Assembly: GCA_046563655.1 (NCBI GenBank)
Contig: CM102287.1
Span: forward strand, 2,108,001-2,172,000
Source: Yuukianura sp. NJ FZ-2021
Taxonomy: Eukaryota
Direction: 5' to 3'
DNA length: 64,000 bases
Of this stretch, positions 1,416 through 28,177 are shown piece after piece. The position numbers were made by a program, and so were the translations under genes. The notes below the pieces were generated by a model. That model made no database searches and had not been told where the DNA came from. It saw only the letters and a program-made list of their open reading frames with translations. Positions within the stretch are counted from its first letter, which is position 1, and the number at the start of each line of letters is the position of its first letter.

Positions 1416-2283
1416 CTCATTAGAAGTTGACGCTTCGTTTTTTTCAGGTGGTTCCTTCTTCTTCTTTGGAACTGGAAGTCCTTGGGGGACTTCCTCCTGA
1501 AATGACCCTAAAGCCAAACCAACACCTGATGGACACTGAAACTTACGATGCCCAAAACCATTACACTTGAAGCACTGAACATCACTTAAGTCTTGCCTAG
1601 AGGTCTGGCCTTGACCTCTGCCTTGACCACCACCACGGTCGTTGTCATTAGAAGAACCACGATTACCACGGTAACCGCCCTTCCCACGTGCAGGCGAATC
1701 ATTTTGAGGCTGCACTGAATTCTTGTCATAATTGGATTTAGAACTTTGACCTTGTGACTGGTCATTGGGTTGAGATGAGGAATGTCCACTGTTCGGACTT
1801 CCATTACTTCCATTAGTCGGGGATTGATCACTGGAATAATTCTTGTAGCCATTTCCTTTGCCTTTCCAGTTTCCACGGAAGCCATTATTTTTGGCTTCCT
1901 TCCCACGAAACCAATTATTTCCATTGGAAGTTCCAGCAGAACTTCCAGCATTTGAATTAGTGGAATTATCATCTTTCTTGACTGACTCTGACTTTGAGTC
2001 GACCTTGACAATTGGAGGTAATCCGAATTTATTTTTTGTGATTCTGTCTTCGGCTGTAAGATTAGCATGAGCAATTCTACATGCATCAAAAAGTGATTCC
2101 ACTGTGTCGAACTGTTGAGTTCCTAGGGCTGTGCGAATCCTCGGATTCAAACCTAATTTTGCACGTAACACTGCATCAGCCACTGACTCATGTGGATAAA
2201 TTAATCTGGAGCACCGAACCACATCATACAAATAAAATTCAACAGACTCGTTGAACTGTTGTCTTCTTGTGTGCAGAAGCCTC
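1395..2283 (-). CDS. gag: Gypsy C gag, C-terminal half with CCHC knuckle
   Basis: CFKCNGFGHRKFQC knuckle; joins 32208-32907 in frame as ...DVAERTR-LLHTRRQQFNESVE... once P and one TSD copy are removed. Confidence 0.9.
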
Positions 2284-2380
2284 AGTAGATAGCAAGTTGG
2301 GACAACGGGCCCATTTATTTTTAGAACATCCACGGGGGCTAGTCGGCCGCAATATTGGGGAGGGAAAAAACTCACAATGA

Positions 2381-2485
2381 CAAAAAATGTCAACAAAAAA
2401 GTCGACAACAAAAACGTCGACAAAAAGATCGAGAACAAAAATGTCAACAAAAAATGTCGATAACAAAAAAGTCGACAACAAAAAA
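2381..2485. repeat. Subterminal ~14-15 bp tandem repeats (AAAAAAGTCGACAAC-like), mirrored at ~32006-32110
   Basis: About 7 degenerate copies of aaaaa(a/t/c)gtc(g/a)acaa seen directly. Confidence 0.75.
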
Positions 2486-2551
2486 CAAGTAGTGAAATTT
2501 TTGTGTAGAAAATTCGAACATCGACTCTAGTCTAGTGTCTAAGTGCTTGTA

Positions 2552-2863
2552 ACTACTTCTCTACGGCCGCTGGTTCGAATACCACACGGGTCAACGCTTG
2601 TGGTTAAGAAGTTACAAGTACTTAGATACAAGACTGGGGTCAATGTTATTATTTTTTTTATTTATTTTTAGTTAAGGATTGAGTTCTTGGAAAAATATCT
2701 TTTCTCAAGAAAAACGTTTTTTCTTGAAAAGTTCTCAAAATAACATTTCTTTAGAAAAAACGTTTTTGAAAAAATTTCAAAATAGCATTTCAAACGTTGT
2801 CCAAGTAGTACTTAAACAGCGAGTTTTGAGACTAGCAATCATCAGTTCGGAAACCAGTCTCAA
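2552..2863 (+). repeat. 312-bp direct repeat, copy 1 (copy 2 at 3708-4019), upstream of each arm paralogue
   Basis: actacttctctacggccgctggttcgaat...ccagtctcaa occurs twice with few differences. Confidence 0.9.
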
Positions 2864-2893
2864 ACTATAAGCATGCGGTGATTCAGGTCATAC

Positions 2894-3763
2894 ATGGAGG
2901 TTTCGGAACCGTTTATTGACATGGAAGATGTCATCGCAGTGAAGATTTCTGGACATTCGATTCTTCTAACAGCAGAGGATCTGCCAACCGTGGTGGAAAA
3001 GCTAGTAAAAGCATACATAGCCGCAGGGGAAATGATGAAGGATTTACCACACTTTGAAACAATCATGGCAACTAACCGCAAGAATGGATTCCTAAAGTTA
3101 TTTCGTCAGCAGTCACCAGCAGAGTTTCAAACACTCAAAGAAAAGCTGGAGCGACCGCTTCCTCCTATCCACTGCATCACAGGCAATGTGAATCGAGTGT
3201 TTCTCATACGTAGCGGTCGTCCACTTCCCATCGAAATCATGGACATTCCTCTTCTGGTGGAATCACTTCTAAAGTGTGGCTGCTTTCCGACCTCATATAC
3301 AGAAAAGTATCTGGATGAGCTCATTCATGAGTCAAAACGTGAATACCTGAGAAAGCTACGCGACAAAATTCTCAACACTCCCATCAACAGAATTAAAGAA
3401 ACAATTGGCAAGGCTGCCGGTTTAAAGACGAACAAGAAAATTCACCCATACAAAAAACCAAACGTGTTTCACCGATTTGCCTGTTATTTATCGCCAAAGT
3501 CTTTCATTTTAAATCCAGCCTACTCGAAGCATGTGCTGGACGTTACCAAACATCAACAAATTCAAATTAACAACCAAAAACGTACTCCAAACCATGACTT
3601 TAACGAGCACTTTAGACTGGTCCATCTTAACATGCATCGTCAATCGTCATACTCTGATGATACAGTTCTCAACATTATTTTTTATGGTGTTAAGCAAATT
3701 TCAGCTTACTACTTCTCTACGGCCGCTGGTTCGAATACTACACGGGTCAACGCTTGTGGTTAA
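2894..3763 (+). CDS. P arm paralogue 1, 289-aa hypothetical protein
   Basis: Intact ATG ORF; clear paralogue of 4077-4893; identical copy at 30728-31597 (-). Confidence 0.75.
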   Translation: MEVSEPFIDMEDVIAVKISGHSILLTAEDLPTVVEKLVKAYIAAGEMMKDLPHFETIMATNRKNGFLKLFRQQSPAEFQTLKEKLERPLPPIHCITGNVNRVFLIRSGRPLPIEIMDIPLLVESLLKCGCFPTSYTEKYLDELIHESKREYLRKLRDKILNTPINRIKETIGKAAGLKTNKKIHPYKKPNVFHRFACYLSPKSFILNPAYSKHVLDVTKHQQIQINNQKRTPNHDFNEHFRLVHLNMHRQSSYSDDTVLNIIFYGVKQISAYYFSTAAGSNTTRVNACG

Positions 3764-4076
3764 GAAGTTACAAGTACTTAGATACAAGACTGGGGTCAAT
3801 GTTATTATTTTTTATTTTTATAGTTTTAGTTAAGGATTGAGTTCTTGGGAAAATATCTTTTCTCAAGAAAAACGTTTTTTCTTGAAAAGTTCTCAAAATA
3901 ACATTTCTTTAGAAAAAAACGTTTGAAAAATTTCAAAATAGCATTTCAAACGTTGTCGAAGTAGTACTTAAACAGCGAGTTTTGAGACTAGCAATCGTCA
4001 GTTCTGAAACCAGTCTCAATCTGCAACCGTGGAAGGGTTTCGACCTTATATAGAAGTTTTGACGCCTTTTAGTGAC

Positions 4077-4893
4077 ATGGAGGATGTCATTGCAGTGAAG
4101 ATTGCTGAACACTCAATTCTGCTAGCAGCAGAGGAACTCCCGACCGTGGTCGAAAAGCTGGTTAAAGCATACATCGAAGCTGGGAGAATGATGAAGGATC
4201 TTCCACATTTTGAAAGAATCATGGCAAGGAACCGCAAGAATGGATTCCTGAAGTTATTCCGAGTTCTAGAAAGACCACCAGCATCGGAAATCCAAATAAT
4301 GAAAGAAAAGCTCGATACGCCACTTCTTCCAATCCACTGCATTAAAAACGAATCAGACCAAGTGTTTCTTATTAGAAGCGGTGGTCCTCTCACACTGAAC
4401 ATCAGTGATATTCCTCTTCTGGTGGAATCGCTTCTAAAGTGTGGTTGCTTTCCTACATTCTTATCCGGAAAGGAATCTGGACGAGCTTATTCATGAAACA
4501 AAGCGTGTTTTCCTCAATAAGCTGCGCAAGGAAGGCCTCAACACTTGTGCGAACAGAATTAAAAACAAGATTGGGAAAGTCGTAGGAATACAGCCAGACA
4601 AGAAAATTCATCCGTACAAAAGTGAAAAACGAAGTATTTTTCAGCGATTTAATTGCTGCTGTCCAACAGTTGATGATACTCTGAAGCCACGCTATCGGAT
4701 GCACATAACGGACGTTACCAAAGACCAACAAGAACGTATTAACAAATCAAGGATTGTTTCAGAAGGAGATTTTGGAGATGCTCAACTTGCCAACATCGAA
4801 AATTACCGATTAGCGCCATATTCCTCTCAAGCCGTCCACATGATTGTTCATCATAGTGAACGAGATCATTCTGCATATGACATTTTCTGTTAG
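4077..4893 (+). pseudogene. P arm paralogue 2, left copy with a 1-nt frameshift
   Basis: tcctacAttcttatcc versus tcctacttcttatcc in the intact right-arm copy; split into ORFs 4029-4496 and 4441-4893. Confidence 0.8.
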
Positions 4894-5093
4894 CTGAATT
4901 TCTGTTATTTAATGGTTTAGTATTACACTTTTACACTTGAATAAAATCCAGGGTTTTAAATTATTTGCCACATTGAAAATTCATTTATTGGATTCATATT
5001 GTAAATTTAAACAAAATTTAAACACCAAATAATAAATCAATGTTGTATAAAATTGTAATTTTTTGTTGTTGAAATTTATTCCCAACTGGCCGG

Positions 5094-5513
5094 TGTTACA
5101 CATACCATACGCAAAGAAAAATTACTAAGCCTAAGTTACTTTCTTTTGTTCCTTGTTTTTCGACCTTCACTGAAATCCCTTGAACTTGGGAAAAACAACT
5201 CCCGATTTTTGTATTTTGAAAATAGTTCCCTTTCCCGATCTTGTTTTGTTATTTAGTAAGGTTAAGGTCACTCCATAAGGTCTAGGCTAAAAATTTCCTT
5301 TAAATACCGTAGTACATCACTGTAAGAGGCAGTTGAAATTCGGACTCTGTTTGGTTCGGATCCAACTAAAACTCCGGGGTAGCCAACTAACTAGGCACTC
5401 GTCGAGTTTACCTAACCTAACCTTCCTCTCCCAAAAAATAAGTTAAATAAAAATAATGCACAAGTATTTTTCGAAGGCCTTTATTTTACAAGTTCAAATA
5501 TGAACTTGTAACA
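5094..5513 (+). repeat. 5' LTR of element A (420 bp)
   Basis: Direct repeat of 25971-26389 with TG...CA ends and AATAAA. Confidence 0.96.
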
Positions 5514-5515
5514 TT

Positions 5516-5526
5516 TGGTGCCGAAA
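5516..5526 (+). promoter_or_regulatory. Primer-binding site of A, tRNA-Phe-like
   Basis: TGGTGCCGAAA 2 nt after the LTR, complementary to the tRNA-Phe 3' end. Confidence 0.75.
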
Positions 5527-5901
5527 GCGAACTCTCCTAATTCCAAAATAAGTTTTGGTACCTGGAGAGGCGAACCAGATTAGAATAATTTTCAATGCAG
5601 AACTAGAATTATTTTCATTCGTCAAATTGGTTTCTGTCTAAGCTCATTTTTCAAATGATTTCAGAATCTAAAAATAAAAACTGCCGTGGAAACTTGTCCA
5701 AAAAGAATCCTCATTTTACTCAGATTTGAAGAAAACCTCTCTCCAATTTTTCTACAATAAAGGTAAAAACAAAATCATGTGCACTTCATTTTCTTCTCTT
5801 ATAATTTTAGTCCTTCTTTTAATTTCGGTTTACCTATATTTTCAAAATTTCTTTAACAATCTAATTAAACCCCTAGATTTTTTCAATACCATGCATTTCT
5901 A

Positions 5902-6393
5902 ATGTTTCATTTAAATACTTATATACTAAACGAGATTTTTTCATACTTAACGTTTGAAGAAATTTTTTACTTACAACTTGCGTTTTCTTCTCAAAAACCT
6001 AAAACAAAATTTGAAAAATTACAACTTTTAAACTTCAGGGAAACCACGCACACAATTCTTCAAATCTTGAAGCTAAAAATAGCAATTCATGAAAATAATT
6101 TCATCCATGACGTAATTACTCTGAAATTAAAAATTTCTGGGACTAATGATTTTGAAGACAGTACATTTGTTACTATTAAGTCATACTTAAAAGAACTCCC
6201 GTCCAGCGTAACGTTGTTACCTACGGTAGATCTTTTACTACAATCTGAAATTTATACTTGCAATGTCCATTCCCATTTCATTCATGCCTTAACTACGGAG
6301 GACTTAACGTTATTACAAACTAAATTTATGATTTGGCCTTTTGTTTTTTTACCTCTTTCTAAACTTATTAATATAGAACGTAATAATTCATAA
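5902..6393 (+). CDS. Element A accessory ORF1, N-terminal F-box-like motif (163 aa)
   Basis: MFHLNTYILNEIFSYLTFEEIFYL fits the F-box pattern L(P)xEILxxIFSYLxxxDL. Confidence 0.7.
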   Translation: MFHLNTYILNEIFSYLTFEEIFYLQLAFSSQKPKTKFEKLQLLNFRETTHTILQILKLKIAIHENNFIHDVITLKLKISGTNDFEDSTFVTIKSYLKELPSSVTLLPTVDLLLQSEIYTCNVHSHFIHALTTEDLTLLQTKFMIWPFVFLPLSKLINIERNNS

Positions 6394-6422
6394 TCATACA
6401 AAGTTTCAAATTTTATAATGGA

Positions 6423-6878
6423 ATGGAAATTTTACATACAGATATTTTAGACGAAATTTTCACATATTTAACCTTTAACGATTTAACAAATTTTAAGATA
6501 GCAGTGGAAAACTCAGAATCTTCATTCTTAAAAACTTACACTCTCAATGTTTTTTACAACTCTCAAGAGCAATTGAAAAATCATTTGGCACAATTACCTC
6601 TTTCACTTTCTTATGTATTCATAAGAAATGATCAGTTTATTGGGTGTGTCAACCTCTTAACTAAAACGTTCTTGGAAACCTTGTTTTTAAAAGAATTGTT
6701 CAAATCCACACTTAGGTTATTACTTGAGACACCGATTTGTTACATTCAAATCGAAGCAACTAAATTCCGTGAATTAAACAAACACTGTCGGAATCTTCTC
6801 GCTAAAAAATTTTTTATCCGTTTTCACAAGGAACTTCCAAATGAACTTTCATACTACAAACTAGACCAAAAATTCTGA
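6423..6878 (+). CDS. Element A accessory ORF2, N-terminal F-box-like motif (151 aa)
   Basis: MEILHTDILDEIFTYLTFNDLTNF; C-terminal half aligns with ORF3 (TKTFLETLFLKELFKST / TKAFLLNLPLKHLFRST). Confidence 0.7.
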   Translation: MEILHTDILDEIFTYLTFNDLTNFKIAVENSESSFLKTYTLNVFYNSQEQLKNHLAQLPLSLSYVFIRNDQFIGCVNLLTKTFLETLFLKELFKSTLRLLLETPICYIQIEATKFRELNKHCRNLLAKKFFIRFHKELPNELSYYKLDQKF

Positions 6879-6882
6879 ACAA

Positions 6883-7359
6883 ATGAATGCGTTAGATTTC
6901 CCTTTAGTAGAACAAATTTTATCCTTTCTGACTTCACAGGATATTATTAATTTCTATTTGGCACTTCAGACTAATAAATTGGAATTCACCAATTTACAAA
7001 TCATCTTAGCTACTAAATATTTCGCAATTAAGGATCAGCTTTTAAAACACACTGCTAAAATAAGTCCAAATCTTCATTTCGTGTCTTACGAAACTTCTAC
7101 AACTAGTTTTTGGAAATTCAATTTTACAAAAGCGTTTCTGTTAAACCTGCCACTAAAACACTTATTTCGATCAACTGCACAAATTTTAACCAACACATCA
7201 ATTTGTGGGATTGCAATCACAGTAAACCATTTTAATTCCTTTTCAGAATTAGAAAAGAAATTAATTAAGGCGAAATTTTCAGTTAAATTTAACAAACATT
7301 CAGCATATTCGGAAAGCAACTATATTTTAGAAGAAAAAACAACGTTGTATATGTTTTAG
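6883..7359 (+). CDS. Element A accessory ORF3, N-terminal F-box-like motif (158 aa)
   Basis: MNALDFPLVEQILSFLTSQDIINFYLA; paralogue of ORF2. Confidence 0.68.
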   Translation: MNALDFPLVEQILSFLTSQDIINFYLALQTNKLEFTNLQIILATKYFAIKDQLLKHTAKISPNLHFVSYETSTTSFWKFNFTKAFLLNLPLKHLFRSTAQILTNTSICGIAITVNHFNSFSELEKKLIKAKFSVKFNKHSAYSESNYILEEKTTLYMF

Positions 7360-7415
7360 ATAAAATTTTTCCGGCCAATTGATTTAAATCCCCGTTTAAC
7401 ATTACCAATTCTTAA

Positions 7416-7550
7416 ATGGATGAAGAAAGAGCTGATAAACTAGAAATCTATTGGACAGCTAGTTTACTTTTTGAATTAGCTCTCGCTTTCACTATAATTA
7501 TTGGCCTAGGATTACTCATTATTTTTTATTTTTACAATTTCAACTACTAA
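7416..7550 (+). CDS. 44-aa single-pass transmembrane peptide
   Basis: Hand translation MDEERADKLEIYWTASLLFELALAFTIIIGLGLLIIFYFYNFNY*; fills the gap before gag. Confidence 0.5.
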   Translation: MDEERADKLEIYWTASLLFELALAFTIIIGLGLLIIFYFYNFNY

Positions 7551-7574
7551 ACATCAGTTAAAATCCAAATCAAA

Positions 7575-8741
7575 ATGAGTAAACCTACCAAAGTTGGAAT
7601 TGTTCCAACCAAGTTTAGTCCTAGGGACGATGCCTTCAAATGGTTACAACAATTCGAACTAGTTAGCATAGCTAACTCTTGGACAAATGAAATTAAAGTG
7701 GTCCAGCTTCCAAATTATCTAACTGCATCAGCTAGTTTATGGTACCTAAATTGGAAGAAAGAACGGACTGAAAAACATAAAGCTACTGCTAAGGAAGGTG
7801 ACACGGAGCCAGCAGTTACATGGGCTGAGCTAACTGAAGCGCTCCAGCGCGCTTTTCAAACTGTCGCTAACAAGGAAATAGCGGAACAGAAATTAAATGA
7901 CCGAAAACAACAATTAGGTGAAAGCTTCGAGGATTTTGTATATGCTTATATTGATTTGTGTAATGATTATGACCCTAATATGACTGAAGCCGTAAAATTA
8001 CGGAAGATTACAAGGTCTCTATTACCATACTATCTAGAAAAAATAAACCCTTTAAATTTAAAAACTATAGAAGAATTAATTAGTACAGGACGAAAAATCG
8101 CGGAAACTCAATTCATGTTAGAACAAAATGCTTCTGTGAATGCCGTTAGTGAGGTCAAACCAGAAATGGACAAACTCACAAAACTTTTTGAAAATCAGAC
8201 TGTTCTGATCACTAATATTCTGGAAAATCAGAAGGATTTATCTAAATTACATGAAGATAAAGAAAAGAGAAAAAATTCAAAAAATAATACAAATAAGCAA
8301 AATTTTAAATGTTATTCATGTGGATCGGATTCACATTTTGCTCAAAATTGTGACAAAAAATTCTGTCAAATTCATAATTCTACTACACATTCTACCTACG
8401 AATGTCGCTTAAAAAACGCAATTGGCCGGGGTCCACGGCCCAGGTATGCCATGGGTTCTCGGCCAGTTATATACCAACAACGCATGAATACCAATTACCG
8501 TCCTCGATTCCAATTTTCCCAACCTTTTGCCCTTCAAACTTACCAACCTCGGCCGAGGAATCCCTCCTACAACCCTCGTTCAACCCAAAATTTTCACAAT
8601 TACTATACCTCCCCATACCAATCCCAACAATTGAGCCAACCCTTTCAAAACAATCAAAATTCAACTTCCAATCCTACCCCAGTTCAGTATTACCAAAATC
8701 CACACCAACAGCAACCCACGTTTCCTCCCACGCTCAACTAA
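7575..8741 (+). CDS. gag: Element A Gag
   Basis: Capsid-like region (KWLQQFE...W...RKQQLGESFEDF), CYSCGSDSHFAQNC knuckle plus CQIHNSTTHSTYEC. Confidence 0.92.
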   Translation: MSKPTKVGIVPTKFSPRDDAFKWLQQFELVSIANSWTNEIKVVQLPNYLTASASLWYLNWKKERTEKHKATAKEGDTEPAVTWAELTEALQRAFQTVANKEIAEQKLNDRKQQLGESFEDFVYAYIDLCNDYDPNMTEAVKLRKITRSLLPYYLEKINPLNLKTIEELISTGRKIAETQFMLEQNASVNAVSEVKPEMDKLTKLFENQTVLITNILENQKDLSKLHEDKEKRKNSKNNTNKQNFKCYSCGSDSHFAQNCDKKFCQIHNSTTHSTYECRLKNAIGRGPRPRYAMGSRPVIYQQRMNTNYRPRFQFSQPFALQTYQPRPRNPSYNPRSTQNFHNYYTSPYQSQQLSQPFQNNQNSTSNPTPVQYYQNPHQQQPTFPPTLN

Positions 8742-11700
8742 AATCTTACGAATATTCTTTTATATTAGGCACCAACGGTGGCCTAATCAGAATTAACGGT
8801 CTAATTAATAACCTTCCAGCTCAAATTATAATTGATACTGGGAGTACAGTATCCTTAGTACACCCACGATTTATTCAAGACAAAAACTTACTTAAATTTA
8901 ATATGAACTTAGTAGGTATAGGTCCAGGGAAAGTTTCCGTTACTCACTGGGCAAGAATTCGAATTCAAATTAATAAAATGAGTATTTATTTTAACGTTTA
9001 CGTAGTACCGAGTTTAATGTTTGACTTACTGTTAGGGTTAGATTTTTGTAAGTTCCAAAAGATTTCTCTCAATGTTTCCGAAGAGAAAGTTTCCTGGCAA
9101 GGAATTGATTTAGAAATTGAACCAATAAGTTTAAATAACTTTTTACATAACGATGATAATTCAAAACAATTAAAACAACGAATATTGAATAAAAAGGTAT
9201 TATTATGTCAAATTAAAAATAGAAATCAAAATTTAATAATTCAAAGGAAGAATGAACCCATTCAGGCAGAAATGGAAGGGCACAAGCTGTCAGAACAAAA
9301 TAAACTTATTAATCAAGAAATAATAATTCAAAGGAAAAATGAACCCATTCAGGCAGAAATGGAAGGACACAAGCTGTCAGAAAATAATAAACTTATGAAT
9401 CGAAAAATAATAATTCAGAGGAAGAAAGAACCCATTCAGGCAGAAATGGAAGGACACAAGCTGTCAGAACAAAATAAACTTAAGAATGATCAACCCATTA
9501 CTTTGACAATGGAAGAACACACTGTGTTAAAAATAAACCAAGACATAAAAAATATGAAAAATAATAACGATTTTAATTTTAGGAACACAAGTAATGAATT
9601 AGATAACATTAAGTTACATAACGCGTTAGCATCAGAGCTCTCGTCTACACAACACCAGACACACAACCAGGATCCTTCTGTACATAATGTTAATAATTTC
9701 ATATTGCCGGCTAGGATAGTAAAATTAGTTAAAGTAAAGCTTAATGGCCACCTTAATGACTTGAATTATTTAGAAATTAGTGATGAATTAATTGAGTTAG
9801 GTATCTTAATGCCACCCATTTTGTTACGATCAATTTACTCGGATGAATTTTTGTTTCTTCCACTTATGAATATTCATGATTTCCCGATTACAATTTCAGC
9901 TAATACTAAAATTGCTAATATCAGTACTTTAGAAAATCTTCCAATTGAAGAAAACGTACTGAATATTGCTGAATGTCGTTCTGAAAATTCCAGTACACAA
10001 GTCGACAGTAATACATTCATTAATGATGAAACCCATGTTCAGACCATTTTAGCTAGAATTGCTTCGACAGCCTCATCCGAGGAAAAAACGTTGCTTGAAG
10101 AAATAATTCGAAAATATCAAGATGTTTTTGCTAGACCTGGAGAAATTGGTAAAATAAATTGCTACAAACATAAAATTACACTCATTCCAAATGCCTCTCC
10201 GGTTAAACGAGCTCCTTATAGGAAAGCTCCAGATCTTGAAAAATTTGAACGTGAAAAAATTCAGGAATTGTTAGAACAAGGAGTAATTAGACCATCATGC
10301 TCTCCTTGGGGAGCTGGGGTAGTTATAGTTAGGGATGGGCATAAGTCAGAACAAGAAAAAGAGCCACGATTTTGCATAGATTACCGTCCAGTGAATAAAG
10401 TTACAGTTAAAGATGCGTATCCATTACCAAACATTCAATCCATATTGGACTGGATCGCACCTAGAGCTAATAAAATATCAACCTTAGACGCACAAAAAGG
10501 GTACTGGGCAATATCAATGGATGAGGACAGCATACCTCTTACAGCTTTCATTACACAATCAGGCTTATTTGAATTTGTACGGCTTCCATTCGGTCTTTGT
10601 GGAGCGCCTGCGGCCTATTCCCGGGCACTTTCGATAATTTTGATGAATTACATTTGGACTAATTTAATTAACTATCTAGACGATATTATTTTTAGCAATT
10701 TAACAATTCAGGAACATGTAAAGGATTTAGAATTAGCATTTCAACGATTCAGAAAATATGGATTGAAAATAAATATTAAGAAAAGCCAATTTTTACGAGA
10801 AAAAATACGCATTTTAGGTTACATTGTTTCTAAAAATGGAATAGAAGTAGATCCTGAAAAAACAAAAGCAATTTCGGAGATTAAAACTCCATCTAATATA
10901 AAAGAAATCCAGCAGTTTCTTGGAGCTGTTTGTTTCTTTCGCCGTTTCATTTACCGTTATTCAGAACTTGCCAAACCGTTGACGATTTTGTTACATCAAG
11001 ATAAGAAATTTCATTGGGGTGAACAGCAAGAAAAATCTTTCCAACTTTTAAAAAATGCACTACTTACAGCCCCGGTATTAGCTCATTACGACCCTAATAA
11101 ACCAATCCATGTCGTTACGGATTCTAGTGGATACGGGTTAGGAGCGTCCTTACTGCAACCCGATGAACATGGGGTTGAAAGACCTGTTGCATTTTCTTCC
11201 CGTACTTTAAATAAAACTCAAATTAAATATTCTACCACAGATCGTGAATACTTAAGCATAATTCATGCATTACAGGTATTTCACCCTTATTTGGACTCTA
11301 AATTCTTTACAATTTTTACTGATCATCAACCCATTACTGGACTAAATTTTGCTAAAAATGAGTCTTCTTCCCGATTAGCCAGATATGCATTAATTTTGCA
11401 ACAATATGACTATAAACTTGTTTACCGTAAAGGAACGTTTAATAAATTAGCAGACTGTCTTTCACGTCTTCCCCTTCCTGACAAATTCGATGAAACAGAT
11501 ATAGAAGTACCAAGTTTTTTAATTTCTGAAGATCACTTACCCCAATTACAGTTAGCTGATTCCGATTGTATCCAAATTATAGAAAAAAATGTCTCAATCT
11601 GTATCAAAACCTAAATTTCAACTAAAAAATGGCATTCTGTACAATTGCAACTACGGATACCCACGTCTGGTGGTCCCTCGAGTACTCAGAAAAGAATTAC

Positions 11701-11843
11701 TACAATTAGTACACGAACAAACTCTTTCAGCACACTTGGGCTTTTCACGCTCCTTTGATAAACTTTCTTTGCGCTATTTTTGGCCGTCCATGGCTGCTGA
11801 TCTATCAAATTTTATTCAAGCTTGTAACTCGTGTTTAATTAAT
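8411..11843 (+). CDS. pol: Element A Pol: PR, RT, RNase H and integrase Zn domain; 1-nt frameshift near 11583-11590; split by B
   Basis: IIDTGS, NYLDD, TDSSGYGLGA, TDHQP; H-H-C-C motif in the 11589 frame; slippery A AAA AAC in the gag frame at 8411-8417. Confidence 0.92.
9235..9500 (+). repeat. Three in-frame 87-bp (29-aa) tandem repeats in A pol between PR and RT
   Basis: IIQRKNEPIQAEMEGHKLSEQNKL repeated three times. Confidence 0.9.
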
Positions 11844-12955
11844 TGTTATGGTCAGCATACTGGTTTCCGTGGACACTGACCGATCCACTGAAGCCAGACC
11901 ACTCGGTTGACCTTGTGACCTCTGGTGGGCTCAAACCGACCCACCGAGTCTCCACCTTTCTTCCAGAAGTTTCTGCTCCACTTCCAATGAATTGGAAGGG
12001 GACAGAAGTTTCTCGAAGAAGCAGAAGGGCAGGCTAATAAATTAGCCGTGTCCTTCAACCCAAAATTGTAACACCCGAACACAGAAGCCTGTGTTAAAAC
12101 AAAGGGACAAGCCTTCTGCTTGTCACGAGTCCTTCAGGCCTGGGATCCCTAAAAAAGGAATCTCAGCCCTGAACAAGGGGTCAGTTGTGACTTTGGCTTT
12201 TGGTGGTTACTTTGTCTAAGCGTACAATCTCAGAACCTTGAACGTACATTAAAAATACAACTTAGCAAGTACATTGGAGAGTGCAGAATTCGACAACTTT
12301 ATTTGCCACGACAGGGAAGTGAGATCATAGAACCAGTGAAAGTAGAGACGTGTGTGTGGAGAGTAGTTTCATTGAGTAAGAGATCTACATTGGTGCCTTC
12401 TCCGACTTGGACTTGGGCCGATCAACCACTTGATCCACAGAGAGAGCACATTAACCCAATCTCACCTTCCGACGGGACGGGAGTAGTGTACCTAGGGAGG
12501 AGGAGAGTGTGTACCCAGGAAACCAGACACAGCAGAAGTGACTAGGGTTGGTCGATCATTTTCCAGGTAGCCAATTTACATTGTCTCTTCATTTCCGCTT
12601 TCTATTCTGTCCATCCTCCTCTCTCTATTACTCCTCACTATTTCTGGAGATGAGACGGGAACAGCGCTCCACTTCTAGCAAATCGCTAGGAGTGGACGAC
12701 ACAGCTAACAAACCGTTAGTTGTGTCTCCAGCGACACTTCTGACCCTTGGCTAATCGCGGGGGTCATCGAGCCTCACCGGTCTTCACCATGAGGGGAGAT
12801 CTGCTTCAAGTCACAGAGGATGCCTACCTCGGATGATTCTGCTCACCTAGGTAGGTGGGTTCTAATTCGGCCGATCAGGCCAATTAGAACCCACGGTGGG
12901 GCACCTTGGGTGGGCCCATCGAGAGTTGGAGGTGTTAGGTGTTAGTAGCGTATCA
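11844..12955 (+). repeat. 5' LTR of element B (1112 bp)
   Basis: TGTTATGG...TATCA; direct repeat of 19167-20277. Confidence 0.96.
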
Positions 12956-14562
12956 GACTGGGGGCTCAGACGGGAAACAGCTGGTGACCTTTTCCTAAAC
13001 ACCAGCAAATGTCGTTCGTTACTTTCACTTTCACTTTCACTTCCACTCTCTCCTGCCTTCCAGTTCTTAACTGTGAGGAAAAAGCTCTGCTTTGCCTTCG
13101 TTCGAAATCACTTTCAATTCCGAACTGACAACGTCTGCTACTCAGTGGAGGTCACCCGGGGCGTTGCCCCTCGGATCCAGCTCCTCTTCACTCCATCGTC
13201 ACTCCGTGGCTCACGCAGGAAGGTTTGACCTGTTACTGGGCTATGGGGGGGGGATGCCAAGGTCAAGAGGAGCATTCCACCTCTTTCCAGTACAAACCTG
13301 CTGGAAGCGGTGGGTTGGTTTAAAATTCTGAAAAACAAAACTAAAATTCCCCTGGTGAATCCTGGAAATTCTGCAAATCTTTCACTGAATTCTTCTAAAT
13401 CTTCATCAAAATTCGGTAGAATCTGTTAGTTGCTTGTACCTGGAATCTATAAGGAAGAACAGGCGTCTAAGTTCAGCTCCACTTCTTCAGTTTTCGGGAA
13501 CACGTGACCCATTGTCCCACCGAGATCCCACATGGACGCATGGCGTGGTTAGTAGGGGGTGGCAGTGGAAAATTAGTCACTTATCTTTCTTTGGTTAGAT
13601 TTTTCTTTTTGTGTGACCTCTGGGGTCAATCCCACAACTCAAAAGTGGGAAACCTGATAACTTTCAAAAACTTTTCGGCCATTTATTTTTATTACTCTTT
13701 CGACACTCCAAATTATTGCCTAGCTAAATCTCTGCGTGAGATAAGGAGGATTTTAGGTTTCGAAAAACTGCTGTTATCTGCAACGCAGTTAACTTTTCAG
13801 TTATTATCAACGTTCTGTTTGAACTTTATGTAATCTTCGGATTTGGAGGTTTCAAAAACTGGAAGTTAAGCACGTCTCTGCAATTAAGATTAACTTGAAG
13901 ATCCGGCACGAGGAGGAAGAGATGGGTGGATCCTAGGTACCCCTCCTTTCTCATCCACCCTCACCTTAGTTTAATTGATGTTTTGCGAATCTGATTCGCA
14001 AGGTCAATCAAACTTTGAGTTCGCTCGGTCTTCATCTGCTTCTGTCTGATCTGTTGTCTGCTGTCTGGTGTCTGGATGGGAAGACTTTTGGTGAAGGCTG
14101 AAAAACGCTACCCTGGATTTTCAGAAATCCTGACGGTCAAGTCCAAATCTCATCATGTTCTGGTCTGATTCTGTTCTGTTCTGCAAACTGCTCTGCTCTG
14201 ATTCTGGTCTGATTCTGATTCTGCAAATGGACTTTGAGGAATGACGTTTGATCTGTCTTGAATCCGGGTAGATTCCTAGAAGCCAAGATCAACTGGAGAA
14301 CCCAAGTCTAAAATATTCTGCTTCTGTTCTGAACTTTGATTATTGTGGGGAAGCTTCTAGTGATTAGTTAGTTAATTACTGAAGCTGGAAAACTATAATT
14401 CAAATGGATTATTAATTCAACGGAGAAATAGATACCAGTATGTGCCTCGAACCGAATCCGCTAGGTTCCAAATTGGGAACGCGCTGAACTCTTACTTCCT
14501 AAATGCTTCTGGGGAGATCCGGGTTAATTAAGGATTAAAGAAGGCTGTACATTTTCCAGAAA

Positions 14563-15585
14563 ATGGCCCACGCAACCATGGATGACTTGACCTCAAGGCT
14601 CAAGAAAACCTTAGTTTCGCCAAGAGGCCACGAGTCGGAACTTGAAGAGTCTTCGTCGGAAGAACCGGAGAGCGATGGGTTGCAAGTTTATTCTGATGCT
14701 AGTCAGCGGGGCGCTGGCCAAACAGTTCAGTTTCCCACACGACCTAGCCATTCAGTTCCCTTCGGAGGTTTAAACAAGATGTCAGCTGTATCTCTTCCAC
14801 TCGCTCCTACCACTGGAACGCAGACCGACATGGGACCCAAAGTGGGCCCGTGCAAATCTGACTCTGTTTTCATGCCTCAATTTAAAGCAAATTCTGAAAT
14901 AAACTGGACTCCAGCAGCTAAGATTCAGTTCAGTCTTCCAGAGGTAGAGCCTCCTACTGGTTTGATGAACGAAACCAAATCTGCTTCTGTTCGAGGGAAT
15001 TCGGAGACCGACGGTGGCTTACGTCCTGTCCGCATCCCGATTCAACCGCAACGTTTCACTGGACATAGAGGATCGGATCCTCAGGCTTATTTGGAAAATT
15101 TCAATCGCATTAGCATCTGCAACGGCTGGAATGCACAGCATAAACTGATCTTCTTCCCACTCTACCTTTCTGGTTTCGCTGCTCGCTGGTATGCCGCTGC
15201 TACCATGGAGAGACAGAGACAAGGGAAGGCAGTCTGGACTTGGCAAGAGCTTGAAGCCCTGTTCAAACGTCACGCGAATTGTTCGGCATCCAAACCGGAT
15301 GACGAATGGCAATTGTTATCTAGAAAACAGAAACAGGGGGAAGCTTATCTCGACTACTTTATACACATGCAGAACCTTGCGGATAGAGTAAGTCCGGACA
15401 TGAGCGAATCCCTACGTGTGAAGTATACGCTGAGGGGTCTGGAACCAACCTTACGGCGTCAAATTGGCATGCATAACCCTGATACCATGGCGAAGCTTCG
15501 AACACTTTTGGAAATTGCTGAACGCAACGAGCAGTCAGACTCCGTTTTTGGTTCTCCCGATCTGTACTACGAAACAACCGATTAA
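14563..15585 (+). CDS. gag: Element B Gag capsid-like protein, no CCHC knuckle (340 aa)
   Basis: PQRFTG...DPQAYLENFNRISICNGW...LYLSGFAARWY...RKQKQGEAYLDY is a typical retrotransposon gag domain. Confidence 0.85.
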   Translation: MAHATMDDLTSRLKKTLVSPRGHESELEESSSEEPESDGLQVYSDASQRGAGQTVQFPTRPSHSVPFGGLNKMSAVSLPLAPTTGTQTDMGPKVGPCKSDSVFMPQFKANSEINWTPAAKIQFSLPEVEPPTGLMNETKSASVRGNSETDGGLRPVRIPIQPQRFTGHRGSDPQAYLENFNRISICNGWNAQHKLIFFPLYLSGFAARWYAAATMERQRQGKAVWTWQELEALFKRHANCSASKPDDEWQLLSRKQKQGEAYLDYFIHMQNLADRVSPDMSESLRVKYTLRGLEPTLRRQIGMHNPDTMAKLRTLLEIAERNEQSDSVFGSPDLYYETTD

Positions 15586-15806
15586 TCCATAGTTAACCGT
15601 GGCTCAGTGGTCTCCTACCCATAATCACTACGATTCTGGGAAGTAAAACTAATACCTTCTCAACTACACGATTATGTTCTTAATTAAATGATTAAGGATT
15701 AATAGAAATCACGTTAAACTTTGATACTTCAAATAGTCGAACAATTGGTTCCACGAATCGAACTGTTACCTAGTACCAGGTTAACATTTCTTCTCTGCTT
15801 TCCAGA

Positions 15807-18608: not shown

Positions 18609-19166
18609 ACTACTTGACAACAAACTGTGAAGACTGACCAGCGTAGCGTTAAGTTTCTTTCCTGTTGAATTCATTAATTATCAACTACTTTTTTTCTTAT
18701 CTTTTCCATCTCATAGTTATTACATTAGCTAAAATACTAACCAAGTACCTCTAAGATAAACTAGTATCAACCATTACTGCATAGTTACCTCAAACAATCA
18801 ACAATCTTCAAATTTTATGAAGTTAACCTCTTTGCAACTATTTTACTAAATTCGAACTAATTTGCTACAACTTTTCTTATCTCAAACATAAAACACTCGT
18901 AATTAACTTTATTTTGTATAACAGTAATCACATCCCCTCTACGAAACTTGTTAACCCTCCAATTTAGTTTTACAAATTCTTATTAGATACCTTCGTAGTT
19001 TTAAGATAATATGATTTCACTAACTCCACTAACCCTGTAATATTACATTTACCTCACGTAAAATGCCAATGAATCAGTCACCACAAGCCAAATCAGTCTA
19101 CGCAGCTTTGCAACGCAATCACCGCTTAGAGCTGATGAGACATCAGCTTCCCGAGGGGGGGAGTGG

Positions 19167-20277
19167 TGTTATGGTCAGCATACTGGTTTCCGTGGACACT
19201 GACCGATCCACTGAAGCCAGACCACTCGGTTGACCTTGTGACCTCTGGTGGGCTCAAACCGACCCACCGAGTCTCCACCTTTCTTCCAGAAGTTTCTGCT
19301 CCACTTCCAATGAATTGGAAGGGGACAGAAGTTTCTCGAAGAAGCAGAAGGGCAGGCTAATAAATTAGCCGTGTCCTTCAACCCAAAATTGTAACACCCG
19401 AACACAGAAGCCTGTGTTAAAACAAAGGGACAAGTCTTCTGCTTGTCACCAGTCCTTTAGGCCTGAGATTCCTAAAAAAGGAATCTCAGCCCTGAACAAG
19501 GGGTCAGTTGTGACTTTGGCTTTTGGTGGCTACTTCGTCTAAGCATAGAACCTCAGAACTTTGACATACATTAAAAACACAAGTTAGCAAGTACATTGGA
19601 GAGTGCAGAATTCGACAACTTTATTTGCCACGACAGGGAAGTGAGATCATAGAACCAGTGAAAGTAGAGACGTGTGTGTGGAGAGTAGTTTCATTGAGTA
19701 AGAGATCTACATTGGTGCCTTCTCCGACTTGGACTTGGGCCGATCAACCACTTGATCCACAGAGAGAGCACATTAACCCAATCTCACCTTCCGACGGGAC
19801 GGGAGTAGTGTACCTAGGGAGGAGGAGAGTGTGTACCCAGGAAACCAGACACAGCAGAAGTGACTAGGGTTGGTCGATCATTTTCCAGGTAGCCAATTTA
19901 CATTGTCTCTTCATTTCCGCTTTCTATTCTGTCCATCCTCCTCTCTCTATTACTCCTCACTATTTCTGGAGATGAGACGGGAACAGCGCTCCTCTTCTAG
20001 CAAATCGCTAGGAGTGGACGACACAGCTAACAAACCGTTAGTTGTGTCTCCAGCGATACTTCTGACCCTTGGCTAACCGCGGGGGTCATCGAGCATCATC
20101 GGTCTTCGCCATGAGGGGAGATCTGCTTCAAGTCACAAAGGATGCCTACCTCGGGTGATTCTGCTCACCTAGGTAGGTGGGTTCTATTCGGCCGATCAGG
20201 TCAATTAGAACCCACGGTGGGGCACCTTCGGGTGGGCCCACTGAGAGTTGGAGGTGTTAGGTGTTAGTAGCGTATCA
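19167..20277 (+). repeat. 3' LTR of element B
   Basis: Direct repeat of 11844-12955, preceded by a PPT. Confidence 0.96.
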
Positions 20278-21915
20278 TAATAAAGTATCACATGAAAAAA
20301 GATACGGGCTTCTTAAACCACTTCCAGTTCCAGAAACAATTTTTGAACTGGTTTCAACTGATGTATGTGGGCCATACCCAATTAGCCAATCAGGAAACAA
20401 GTATATTGTCAATATTATTTGTCATTTTTCTAAATGGGCGGAGCTTAAAGCGATACCTGACCAAACAGCTGAAGCTATTGCTAAATTTTTACACGAAAGG
20501 GTTTTTTCACGTATGGGTTCTGTTCGTTACTTATTAAGTGACAACGGAGGACCGTACATAAGTGAATTATTGAAAACTTACTGCAGGTTATATAAAACTA
20601 AACATTTATTTATCACGCCTTATAATTCTAGGGGCAACGGACTTGCTGAACGGTTACATTTAACAATGAATCGTATGCTATCACATTATGTCAGCACAAT
20701 GCACAATAACTGGGACCTAAATTTAGAACAAATTCAATTTGCTTACAATACTGCTAAACATGAAAGTACTCATCAGAGTCCCTATCGTATTGTATTTAAT
20801 CGTGAGCCATCATTTCCTTATCAATTACCTTCTTCTGAGACTTTACGGTCTAATTGCGACATTTTTCATCTGCGTAAACTTGTAAAAGAAACTTTAGAAA
20901 AAGAACAAGAAAGATATAAAATTCGTGAGGATCAACGACGCAAGGAAGTCGATTTTAAAATTGGAGACAAAATTAAACTCAAATTTCCTCGCCGCACTGA
21001 GAAAGGTCAATCTAAAAAATTTATACCATACTATTTAGGGAATTACGAGATTTTAGAAAAACTTAATGATCTCCTCTATAAAATTAAATGTTTAAAAACA
21101 AATACCGTTTCCACAGCACACGTAGGAAGAATGCGGAAAATTTTTGCTTGGGACTTACCAGATATCGAAAGTGATACATATTACACTACTCTTGACAATT
21201 TAAAAGAAGATTTAGACTCTCCCGAGAAACTATTTTTTACTTTAAAACAAAATTTTACTGGAACCAGACAAGAATTAACTCATCCCTTTTCCACTGGATA
21301 TACTTCTTTTGACATTATTTACTATAAATCATTATTAAATTGGATAGATATACAACAAATTATTGAAAAATACGGACTAACTGACATTTTACTACTAAAC
21401 ATTTATTCGTTTGTAACTAATTATTTTCCACGGTTAAAGCTTACTCCTAATTTTCAAATTTTTACCCTGAAGAAGCCAATTCCATTTGCAATCTATAAAT
21501 TCACAAGCGAAATTTCTTTTAACGATCTAGAAGAATTCTTTACTCATATGCATCGAAAAATTTTACTACGTTTTGATAAAAATTTGTTTGAATTTTTGTT
21601 AAAATTTATTACACATTCTAAAAATAAATTATATTTATATCCTTCAATATCTAAAATTCTACAGACCCTATTATTCAACGTTGGTAGTGACAATCTCAAT
21701 TTAGTAAACTTAACTACTATTCTTACCTTACCTCCATTAAAGAACTATACAAAGAAAGTGAATTCATACCAATCAATGACAACTCGTGAGATGACGAGGG
21801 ACCAAATACTTTCACTCCACAAGGAAAGATGAAAGAACAATTTCGACAAAAACCATATGAAAAACGCATTAGAAAGAAACCAATTTGGATGAAAGATTAT
21901 GTAGTTGATTCCTAA
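20278..21915 (+). CDS. pol: Element A integrase core with long C-terminal extension (late frameshift before ~21830)
   Basis: VSTDVCGPY, LSDNGGPY, GNGLAER (DDE), GPY/F-like region; tail KRIRKKPIWMKDYVVDS* lies in a shifted frame ending 21915. Confidence 0.88.
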
Positions 21916-24198: not shown

Positions 24199-24285
24199 CA
24201 CCAAACCTATAAAACTAAAATCACACTATACATCTATACTTTACTATACTATACATCTATTCCTATTTTTGTGTCCAACTTTCTA

Positions 24286-28030: not shown

Positions 28031-28177
28031 TTTTATATTCACTACGGCAAGGTGTTTACGCTCTGTGAACCTAACTTTTGTGATTTCCACTCAGCGAGAA
28101 GAAGAGAGATTCAAAGAGAATATATCTTGTCCGCTTCTGATCTGTGACTAAATGAATTCTCTATCAGCGTGTAGGAC

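Follow-up and report, generated by a model that had tools for sequence, protein, structure and literature searches.

Probable accessory genes with F-box-like N-termini between the primer-binding site and gag of an env-bearing Ty3/Gypsy endogenous retrovirus

Architecture of element A and its pre-gag reading frames

The DNA analyzed here, referred to as the window, is a stretch of 64,000 nt, and all coordinates are positions within it unless they are assigned to L001, a metagenome contig. The window harbors an env-bearing endogenous retrovirus, termed element A, with the following features.

5089-5093, unstranded: GCCGG, 5' copy of the target-site duplication, from the junction sequences
5094-26389, + strand: element A, env-bearing Ty3/Gypsy (Metaviridae) endogenous retrovirus
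5094-5513, + strand: 5' LTR (TGTTAC...TGTAACA), 420 nt
5516-5529, + strand: primer-binding site (PBS) TGGTGCCGAAAGCG, read from the sequence, starting 2 nt past the 5' LTR
5777-5902, + strand: ORF0, 41 aa, hydrophobic, single transmembrane-like segment, with a homologue in L001
5902-6393, + strand: ORF1, ATG ORF of 163 aa, F-box-like N-terminus and divergent C-terminal part
6423-6878, + strand: ORF2, ATG ORF of 151 aa, F-box-like N-terminus, paralogue of ORF3
6883-7359, + strand: ORF3, ATG ORF of 158 aa, paralogue of ORF2
7416-7550, + strand: 44-aa ORF with a hydrophobic stretch, directly 5' of gag, status uncertain
7575-8741, + strand: gag, PF03732 (Retrotrans_gag) E 7.5e-5, one zinc knuckle (zf-CCHC E 0.045)
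8402-11614, + strand: pol with protease, RT and RNase H (Pfam RVP_2, RVT_1, RT_RNaseH); the frame stops at 11614
11589-11843, + strand: integrase zinc-binding domain, PF17921 (Integrase_H2C2) E 2e-16
11844-20277, + strand: nested LTR element B, within the integrase of element A and outside the cassette
20278-21832, + strand: integrase core (rve E 6e-11), SH3-like domain (SH3_Tf2-1) and C-terminal extension of ~230 aa
22030-24198, + strand: env, class III (rhabdovirus/chuvirus G-like) fusion glycoprotein, PF24664 (Monjiviricetes_fusion) E 3e-12, PF00974 E 2.7e-4
24199-25473, + strand: open frame behind env, first ATG at 24286
25971-26389, + strand: 3' LTR, with a purine-rich tract just before it
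26390-26394: GCCGG, 3' copy of the 5-bp target duplication of element A

The LTRs, target-site duplication, PBS and polypurine tract, together with gag, the protease-RT-RNase H-integrase order and env, make element A a genuine member of the Metaviridae. An uninterrupted, empty paralogous site with a single GCCGG lies at 29399-29403 in the window, and the two LTRs are 98.3% identical over 420 columns. The PBS is a putative match to the 3' end of animal tRNA-Phe. Within pol, three 29-aa repeats correspond to 87-nt repeats at 9214-9487. The integrase zinc-binding domain lies in a frame different from that of the other pol parts in this copy and is interrupted by element B, which has LTRs of 1113 nt that are 97.5% identical and a gag-like ORF at 14563-15585. 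Env carries a hydrophobic anchor at its C-terminus; in this copy no in-frame ATG precedes the signal-like segment, and the first Met is residue 137. The frame behind env is basic at its N-terminus and ends in an acidic tail rich in Ser, and a Pfam search with it returned no matches. The break in the pol frame near 11.6 kb, the nested insertion and the missing env start render this copy defective, and its activity is therefore not to be assumed.

The original prediction placed three tightly packed, intact ORFs of 151-163 aa between the PBS and gag, and the ORF list returns the same lengths, with 29 nt between ORF1 and ORF2 and 4 nt between ORF2 and ORF3. ORF0 is an additional, fourth member of the array, and its stop codon (TAA) shares one base with the ATG of ORF1. 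Residues 8-16 read ILNEIFSYL in ORF1, ILDEIFTYL in ORF2 and LVEQILSFL in ORF3. The end-to-end alignment of ORF2 and ORF3 (29% identity over 152 columns, E 1e-15) bears out the proposal that they are paralogues diverged along their full length; the likeness of ORF1 to ORF2 is limited to the N-terminus (50% over 24 residues, E 3e-4). Three plus-strand ATG ORFs of at least 151 aa arose in none of 2000 shuffles of 5515-7574 (29% G+C), where no ORF exceeded 138 aa, which excludes a chance origin of the three ORFs.

The cassette in a distant relative

A related element is present on L001, with the order LTR, PBS, ORF0, ORFa, ORFb, gag, pol, env. Its LTR starts with the same sequence as that of element A, TGTTACAC, and both elements contain the 11-nt PBS core TGGTGCCGAAA, located in L001 at 896, 2 nt past an LTR-like end. 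The two elements share 45% identity in gag, 50% in pol, 48% in integrase (region 20278-21832 against L001 pol, 484 columns) and 50% in env, and pol of L001 is a single continuous frame of 1600 aa. The L001 cassette spans 1023-2172. Its ORF0, also of 41 aa (1023-1148), abuts the first F-box-like ORF, and the gap between ORFa and ORFb is 4 nt. The two ORF0 proteins are identical at 15 of 41 positions without gaps, a value reached in none of 20000 shuffles. In the other element, ORF2 finds its best match in ORFb (E 1.6e-7, with 39% identity across 46 residues) and its next in ORFa (E 1.9e-5). Full-length likeness is confined to paralogues of the same element (29%, E 1e-15; 34%, E 1e-23); between elements the N-termini of the paralogues match, and the C-terminal parts diverge fast. 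No ORF of at least 15 aa that could be a counterpart of the 44-aa ORF is found in L001 2150-2470.

Database searches returned the same relative. Among 1.84 billion representative proteins, the sole credible match of the profile search is P0002 (E 8e-4), a protein encoded on L001 itself, with an hhalign probability of 94.8% (E 5e-8, 132 columns). A word-index search of 5.8 billion clusters with the five-sequence profile recovered only the two proteins of L001, and none of 28 candidates from the same kind of search with ORF2 alone held up. Beyond those two proteins, no host-like homologue was found in the 1.84 billion representatives or the 5.8 billion clusters. P0001 (1920 aa) was discarded as a spurious hit, being repetitive and lacking a matched stretch, and the contigs L002 and L003 were rejected as relatives, as their genes look bacterial and the match covers just 40 residues. 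No match came from scanning viral_contigs with gag, pol and env, and the alignment of the accessory proteins offers no stretch conserved enough for such a scan.

The family is thus documented from two elements, element A and that on L001. The same cassette at the same place in both indicates inheritance rather than a single capture, and the one-off fragment of host origin that the original prediction considered is not what is found. The further claim that the ORFs have stayed open agrees with the homologues in L001, which lie at the same position in an element that shares no more than 45-50% identity with element A in gag, pol and env. Other-copy DNA contigs display deletions or replacements in the array, for example at the joints 5808>6513, 6018>6536 and 6042>6081, so that the array is incomplete in some copies. 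Among the 40 differences between copies that are listed, beyond which there are 581 more, seven of the nine within ORFs are synonymous, a hint of selective constraint. The ORFs are very probably real accessory genes that this lineage of elements has conserved.

Likeness of the N-termini to the F-box

F-boxes bind Skp1 in SCF ubiquitin ligases. The Pfam F-box family, PF00646, has a cut-off of 20.5 bits, and the N-terminal 50 aa of ORF1-3, ORFa and ORFb were used as five queries against Pfam. PF00646 is the top family for three of the five, with E-values of 0.0061, 0.044 and 0.065 and scores of 16.9, 14.2 and 13.6 bits, all of which fall short of the gathering score. The ORF1 piece (E 0.044) aligns through residues 3-28 with profile positions 3-26 of 43, and ORF2 matches at E 0.065-0.099; the N-termini of ORF3 and ORFa have no Pfam match. 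All three matches fall in one common register, in which residues 2-4 to 24-28 lie on profile positions 2-4 to 24-26. The alignments span only positions 2-26 of the 43, which are helices 1-2.

The controls were 97 in-frame pieces of 50 aa from gag, pol, env and the post-env frame of both elements. None of them matched an F-box family at E <= 0.1. Five matched some unrelated family at that level, one at E 0.0065, so E-values of this size do arise by chance; moreover, the three matching N-termini are homologous, and their matches are therefore not independent. Examination by eye shows that the LP dipeptide is missing in four of the five N-termini and the basic-x-Trp of helix 3 in all five. The hydrophobic positions conserved among the N-termini are L4, I/V12, L16 and A27 in ORF2 numbering. 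A conserved aromatic residue lies ~8 residues past a conserved Ala in the N-terminal alignment and could mark a displaced helix 3.

Independent searches provide leads in the same direction. A profile of the five N-termini matched eight PDB sequences at E <= 10, six of which are YPD1 and the other two the F-box proteins Cdc4 and KDM2B. The last two align at LP..I/L..IF..L, which is presumably the start of their F-box, with E about 1-2, values that are individually insignificant. The full-length profile had no match in the PDB at E <= 10. Among the language-model neighbours listed, four of the seven named for ORF2 and all five named for ORFb have an F-box, with scores of 0.85-0.90 and few shared features, and these are likewise insignificant one by one. 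The C-terminal part is variable, 100-130 aa long, and has no Pfam family and no recognisable substrate-binding fold. Two AlphaFold2 models are of low confidence (mean pLDDT 49.4 and 51.4), with three N-terminal helices at a pLDDT of 42-79 only. Foldseek with the first model found nothing at E <= 0.001, and a wide VIA-align search with the second returned generic helical matches with Z <= 6.3; models of such quality are no evidence on the fold in either direction.

The likeness of the N-termini to the F-box thus appears specific though sub-threshold, and is suggestive only. The F-box-like motif proposed by the original prediction is upheld insofar as PF00646 ranks first for three of the five pieces in one register and for none of the 97 controls, and falls short insofar as every score lies below the cut-off. 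Similarly, comparison with the profile itself supports helices 1-2, which align, and not the LP dipeptide or the Trp of helix 3, which are unconserved.

Possible functions of the cassette

The explanation we prefer, with a probability of roughly 45%, is that a lineage of env-bearing Ty3/Gypsy endogenous retroviruses carries a conserved accessory cassette from PBS to gag whose products act as SCF adaptors. The cassette would comprise the 41-aa hydrophobic ORF0 followed by tandem paralogues of 150-175 aa, two in L001 and three in the window, each joining a conserved N-terminus of ~25-30 residues that resembles F-box helices 1-2 to a fast-diverging C-terminal part. Its ORFs would be translated as one closely coupled polycistronic series at the 5' end of full-length element RNA, in keeping with stop-to-start spacings of -1, 0, 4, 4 and 29 nt across the two cassettes. 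The paralogues would serve as interchangeable substrate adaptors in which the N-terminus docks on host Skp1 of the SCF, like truncated viral F-boxes, and the variable C-termini would recruit different host proteins, presumably restriction or silencing factors, for ubiquitination. The explanation builds on the ORFs, their paralogy, the place and sequence they have kept in a distant relative, and the sub-threshold likeness to the F-box, and tandem paralogues that share a conserved N-terminus and differ in their C-termini fit the build typical of an adaptor family. A fuller version, to be taken as tentative, is that the lineage possesses an expandable minimal F-box array and a tiny membrane protein ahead of gag and uses the SCF to destroy host defence or silencing factors. 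By analogy, and just as tentatively, the array may be a counterpart of lentiviral Vif/Vpr/Vpu and of the poxvirus PRANC proteins, with tandem duplication driven by an arms race. If the N-terminus does dock on Skp1, the C-termini become probes for the host factors that restrain the element, possibly proteins of the piRNA pathway or other restriction proteins, and retrotransposons join the parasites that encode ubiquitin-ligase adaptors themselves.

A different role is a serious possibility, though we would not bet on it. The ORFs would be genuine conserved accessory genes that are not ubiquitin-ligase adaptors, their N-terminal helix pair, a short amphipathic helix-loop-helix, would be nuclear, RNA-export or regulatory, and the F-box likeness would be coincidental. 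Models for such a role are sORF1 of Drosophila 412, a nuclear protein of ~110 aa with a predicted helix-turn-helix (PMC11952523), and CERV of C. elegans Cer1, described as an element-encoded export factor for genomic RNA (PMC10309623). All of the evidence for conservation applies equally to this possibility. The F-box scores are sub-threshold throughout, helix 3 is unrecognisable, and five of the 97 controls matched unrelated families. Coincidence would, however, have to account for the same family and register coming top for three members from two elements against none of the controls, and for independent PDB and language-model leads that also point to the F-box; a short conserved N-terminus with variable C-termini would, in addition, be typical of adaptor families.

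It is improbable that the frames act as upstream ORFs or as RNA, tuning gag translation or the packaging of genomic RNA, with dispensable proteins. Retroelement leaders carry packaging and translation signals, and the ORFs sit in the leader with the tight stop-start spacing that reinitiation requires. Against this, two elements with only half of their gag, pol and env residues in common both keep frames of 150-175 codons open within AT-rich DNA, the paralogues are alike at the protein level within elements (E 1e-15 and 1e-23) and between them, and most of the listed in-ORF differences are synonymous, which together argue for selection on the peptides. More improbable still is a decaying or neutral block with no role in the element, be it a captured host F-box fragment or chance ORFs: the high LTR identity marks copy A as young, so that its intact frames say little about selection, and some other copies have deletions in the block, but the cassette recurs at the same place in a distant relative, the searched databases contain no host-like homologue, and no shuffle reproduces the ORFs.

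Comparison with known systems

The original prediction took Gypsy leaders to be normally non-coding and knew of no comparable arrangement among the Metaviridae; both statements are too strong. In the Drosophila MDG1-group (412, mdg1, Stalker, Blood, Tabor), sORF1 and sORF2 lie upstream of gag and are expressed from unspliced full-length RNA; one product is short and membrane-spanning, the other larger and soluble, and dN/dS is low for both (PMC11952523). Extra ORFs upstream of gag-pol are reported in plant elements too (PMC7264820). Pre-gag ORFs are therefore not unprecedented in the Metaviridae, and by analogy the translation of such accessory ORFs from unspliced RNA has its precedent in the MDG1-group (PMC11952523). 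Like the MDG1-group, the present lineage has sense accessory ORFs between the 5' LTR/PBS and gag that related elements share (window 5777-7359; L001 1023-2172). The MDG1 elements are without env, whereas the lineage of element A has one, and sORF1 is single, ~110 aa long and of helix-turn-helix type, whereas here two or three tandem paralogues of 150-175 aa have an F-box-like start. The comparison with sORF1 and sORF2 is one of layout and described features.

Polerovirus P0, nanovirus Clink and lentiviral Vif, Vpu and Vpr are small proteins that hijack cullin-RING ligases against host defence factors; Vpu recruits a cellular F-box protein and is not itself one. No LTR retrotransposon or metavirus is known to encode any of these. 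They resemble the cassette in the way of working proposed for it, with no sequence relationship. Caulimoviruses, plant pararetroviruses without LTRs or integrase, have closely packed ORFs for movement and transmission proteins between the tRNA primer site and the capsid gene, and these are translated by reinitiation; the analogy is one of layout only.

The poxvirus Ank/PRANC proteins include truncated F-boxes that bind Skp1, that of CP77 being 13 aa long (PMC3185573), and they are multi-copy, fast-evolving adaptors whose variable domain selects host targets (PMC3185573, PMC9414399, PMC4353913). The PRANC motif is C-terminal, after ankyrin repeats, and Skp1 binding has been demonstrated. In the present lineage the motif sits at the N-terminus, its usual position in cellular F-box proteins, no repeat is recognised in the rest, and the proteins are putative Skp1 binders.

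Accessory genes are what divides complex from simple retroviruses. Ty3/Gypsy elements with herpesvirus gB-like or chuvirus-like env are reported across metazoans in a survey by Chary and Hayashi (eLife 2026, PMC13524379). They have the same backbone as element A, LTR-gag-pol and a fusion glycoprotein of class III (PF24664). By its own statement the survey did not search for other ORF arrangements, and a term search of it gives no occurrence of 'upstream of gag', 'accessory' or 'F-box', so the pre-gag cassette is not described there (PMC13524379). Among the results listed by searches of an open-access library, none describes an F-box-like array encoded by a retroelement, and the MDG1-group sORFs are the only functionally studied pre-gag genes of the Metaviridae that we found there. 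ORF0 and the paralogue array form an apparently undescribed gene set, even should the F-box reading fail. Should an env-bearing Gypsy lineage indeed carry a conserved, duplicating cassette, invertebrate endogenous retroviruses would be shown to evolve host-directed accessory families as well.

The small hydrophobic ORFs can be set beside sORF2, a FAST-like protein that combines an N-myristoylation motif (MGxxxS/T) with a polybasic tract in juxtamembrane position (PMC11952523). ORF0 (MC...) and the 44-aa ORF (MD...) each have a hydrophobic stretch and, by eye, have neither the motif nor the tract. Candidate splice donors were noted by eye just before or at the start of ORF0, at ~5762/5763 in the window and at 1020/1021 in L001.

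The pre-gag cassette and its counterpart

The env-bearing Ty3/Gypsy element A carries three F-box-like ORFs between its PBS and gag, directly preceded by a small hydrophobic ORF (ORF0). The coordinates, lengths, gaps (29 nt between ORF1 and ORF2, 4 nt between ORF2 and ORF3) and F-box-like motifs in the original prediction of three intact, tightly packed ORFs upstream of gag were all reproduced; the motifs occupy residues 8-16 of each ORF, and the LTRs, target duplication, PBS and gag-pol-env confirm that the host is an env-bearing Gypsy element.

Features of element A (window coordinates)
5094-5513 and 25971-26389: LTRs, 98.3% identical over 420 columns
5777-5902: ORF0, 41 aa, hydrophobic
5902-6393, + strand: ORF1, 163 aa, ATG start
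6423-6878, + strand: ORF2, 151 aa, ATG start
6883-7359, + strand: ORF3, 158 aa, ATG start
7416-7550: hydrophobic ORF before gag, 44 aa
Downstream genes, by Pfam: gag (PF03732), protease, RT, RNase H, integrase, env
11844-20277: element B, an LTR element inside the integrase; 1113-nt LTRs, 97.5% identical; 4-nt TAAT duplication
14563-15585: gag-like ORF of element B
15807-18608: 933-aa Pro/Ser/basic-rich ORF of element B
24199-25473: post-env open frame, 424 codons, first ATG 24286; basic N-terminus, long acidic Ser-rich tail

The G+C content of the ORF region is 29%, so that stop codons are frequent, and three ORFs of at least 151 aa arose in none of 2000 shuffles of 5515-7574 (longest shuffled ORF, 138 aa). 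The proposed paralogy of ORF2 and ORF3 is borne out by an alignment along their whole length (29% identity, 152 columns, E 1e-15). Similarity between ORF1 and ORF2 is confined to the N-terminal 24 residues (50% identity, E 3e-4), and ORF1 matches ORF3 more weakly. The ORFs are very probably real accessory genes.

ORF2 as a single query found nothing in a word-indexed protein collection. A profile of ORF1-3 returned two of 1.84 billion representative proteins at E <= 1e-3, one of which, a repetitive 1920-aa protein without a matched stretch, was rejected. A 174-aa protein, P0002, was the second (E 8e-4, profile 1-135 on protein 1-140). It is backed by hhalign (probability 94.8%, E 5e-8, 132 columns) and was located by a metagenome-contig scan in L001, a 9075-nt contig with a related element; two further loci of the scan were rejected as bacterial and spurious. 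The LTR-like segment of L001 starts with TGTTACAC and ends in ...AACA, and the 11-nt PBS core of element A recurs 2 nt past it, at 896.

Features of L001 (contig coordinates)
1023-1148: ORF0, 41 aa, hydrophobic, directly preceding ORFa
1149-1643: ORFa, 164 aa
1648-2172: ORFb (P0002), 174 aa, 4-nt gap after ORFa
2453: gag start, followed by an unbroken 1600-aa pol
8219: env start

Within L001, ORFa and ORFb align as paralogues across 160 columns (34% identity, E 1e-23). Similarity between the ORFs of the two elements is mainly N-terminal (ORF2-ORFb, E 1.6e-7; ORF2-ORFa, E 1.9e-5; ORF1-ORFb, E 0.002); ORF1 has no match to ORFa, that of ORF3 to ORFa or ORFb is not significant, and no counterpart of the 44-aa ORF was found in L001. 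The two ORF0 sequences are equal in length and share 15 of 41 residues in an ungapped alignment, a value reached in none of 20,000 shuffles. The ORF0 stop overlaps the ORF1 ATG by 1 base in the window and abuts the ORFa ATG in L001. Because the cassette ORFs are closely packed in both elements, this stop/start contact and the 4-nt paralogue gaps suggest a polycistronic 5' region with coupled translation. ORF0 possibly encodes a small membrane protein; its position is comparable to that of sORF2 of MDG1-group elements but, unlike sORF2, it contains neither a myristoylation motif nor a polybasic tract. In each element a candidate splice donor, picked by eye, sits at or just before the ATG of ORF0 (AAG/GTAAAA at about 5762/5763 in the window; GAG/GTATGT at 1020/1021 in L001); if used, these donors would give spliced RNAs without the entire cassette.

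Likeness to F-box proteins

With whole proteins as queries, no Pfam family other than PF00646 recurs, and it matches two of the five members (E 0.028 and 0.099). With the N-terminal 50 aa it is the top family for three of the five (ORF1, E 0.044; ORF2, E 0.065; ORFb, E 0.0061), in a constant register that pairs residues 2-4 to 24-28 of the protein with positions 2-4 to 24-26 of the 43-position profile. Among 97 in-frame 50-aa control pieces cut from the gag, pol, env and post-env frames of the two elements, none matches an F-box family at E <= 0.1; expected retroelement families account for 23, five match five different unrelated families and 69 match nothing. The F-box likeness stands out against the controls but is partial: all PF00646 scores lie under the Pfam cut-off of 20.5 bits, the alignment is restricted to helices 1-2, and the three matching N-termini are homologous sequences. 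The LP and helix-3 Trp are not conserved in the five-sequence alignment as read by eye.

A profile of the five N-termini matches eight PDB sequences at E <= 10, six of which are versions of YPD1 (profile 27-48). At E about 1-2.3, the remaining two matches fall in Cdc4 (profile 4-23) and in a 47-residue chain of KDM2B (profile 7-22), in both cases where we take the F-box to begin. The full-length profile has no match in the PDB, and both AlphaFold2 models were poor, with uninformative fold searches. Language-model neighbours, whose scores of 0.85-0.90 serve as leads only, include clusters listed with PF00646: four of the seven named clusters among those listed for ORF2 (16-100% of members; 0.85-0.87) and all five named ones among those listed for ORFb (0.87-0.90).

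Truncated viral F-boxes of poxvirus Ank/PRANC proteins bind Skp1, that of CP77 being 13 aa long (PMC3185573), so a half-motif is no bar to function. The predicted role as SCF/Skp1 adaptors is tentative, with a probability of about 0.45. Its main rival, that these are real accessory proteins with some other function, is a possible though less favoured reading: the sub-threshold scores and the missing helix-3 Trp sit well with it, and the constant register and clean controls sit less well.

Conservation, other copies and known elements

Because the same arrangement and homologous ORFs occur in L001, the cassette predates the split of the two lineages. A one-off captured host fragment is rejected, since L001 carries a homologous cassette in an element whose gag, pol and env are only 45-50% identical to those of the window (gag 45%, pol 50%, integrase 48%, env 50%). 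The observation on ORF1-3 is confirmed, and it now takes in ORF0 and the conserved cassette of L001. A five-sequence profile (ORF1-3, ORFa, ORFb) found no further members, and viral contigs scanned with gag, pol and env yielded no relatives.

Three sequencing runs, all DNA, from two studies with two organism labels, contain the pre-gag stretch; no RNA run was among those listed. A near-identical 1687-nt contig over 5835-7520 (five differences) may derive from the source sample itself; the other study gave near-identical pieces over 7014-7674 (four differences) and 7736-9274 (five differences). A diverged contig covers 6316-6980 (86 differences, seven gaps), and several contigs have array parts skipped or replaced (joints 5808>6513, 6018>6536, 6042>6081, 6189>6316 and 6227>6331). 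Because of these diverged and rearranged contigs, the family is seen to be multi-copy, with arrays altered in some copies. As the LTRs are 98.3% identical, intact ORF1-3 in copy A alone say little on selection; of the 40 differences listed (581 more lie beyond the listing), nine are within ORF1 or ORF2 and seven of these nine are synonymous, a hint of selective constraint.

The backbone of element A is of a type known across metazoans, in which a Gypsy element carries an env like that of chuviruses or like gB; the survey that describes it left other ORF arrangements aside (PMC13524379). Pre-gag ORFs are shared with plant elements, which are described as having additional ORFs upstream of gag-pol (PMC7264820), and with the Drosophila MDG1 group, where sORF1 (about 110 aa, nuclear) and sORF2 (about 70 aa, transmembrane, FAST-like) are reported on unspliced full-length RNA, with peptides of both detected (PMC11952523). 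Given these MDG1-group ORFs, the earlier statement that no such arrangement was known in Metaviridae goes too far. Pre-gag accessory genes in Metaviridae and minimal F-box adaptors in viruses each have precedents; the open-access literature searched contained no report of a retroelement-encoded F-box-like protein or of a tandem paralogue array upstream of gag.

Element A and its surroundings

GCCGG target duplications flank element A, whose flanks are repeated inverted in the window (2283-5093 = 32208-29399 at 99.75%; 26390-26844 = 29403-28949 at 100%). With no interruption and just one GCCGG, the inverted copy serves as an internal empty site from which the ends of element A are fixed. Two origins fit this element-free copy (28949-32208): an inverted duplication of very recent date, or two haplotypes assembled together. 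The duplicated flank holds two copies of a ~290-aa ORF family (2894-3763 and 4077-4496; 29599-30483 and 30728-31609) with no Pfam match. The PBS, TGGTGCCGAAAGCG, lies 2 nt past the 5' LTR and presumably resembles the 3' end of animal tRNA-Phe.

Copy A is defective: pol shifts frame near 11.6 kb, element B interrupts the integrase, and env lacks an in-frame ATG ahead of its signal-like segment. Element B has no recognisable pol, its 933-aa ORF has no Pfam match, and it may be non-autonomous. The signature of env is that of a class III fusion glycoprotein (PF24664 Monjiviricetes_fusion, E 3e-12; PF00974, E 2.7e-4). Over 22030-22440 its open frame has no ATG before a signal-like hydrophobic segment, the first Met being residue 137, unlike the env of L001, whose frame opens with ATG; the copy is defective here, or else an upstream exon supplies the start via splicing. 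The post-env frame, with no Pfam match, is a possible additional accessory gene; the L001 contig stops within env, short of the corresponding region. Three tandem 87-nt repeats (9214-9487, 88% identical) encode 29-aa repeats between protease and RT. An integrase C-terminal extension of ~230 aa past the SH3-like domain (window 21000-21832; L001 about 7400-8196) belongs to no Pfam family, yet both elements share it in conserved form.

Beside the insertion site lies a 394-aa frame (26906-28090, - strand). It combines a C2H2 zinc finger with a packaging ATPase of Pox_A32 type (PF04665, E 6.7e-6) and resembles an ATPase gene of Polinton/Maverick or viral origin. Further LTR pairs within 33921-40413 and 41711-55137 (33921/39970, 94.5%; 41711/54745, 95.4%; 46357/52693, 98.1%) enclose large gag-pol ORFs. 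The innermost is a Gypsy-like element, 34% identical to the pol of element A, and lies nested within a further element. Judged by eye, the outer ones resemble BEL/Pao elements. Tandem repeats occupy 28606-28857 (42-nt unit), 40561-41035 (~42-nt unit coding Gly/Pro-rich repeats) and 60624-61461 (a complex direct and inverted array).
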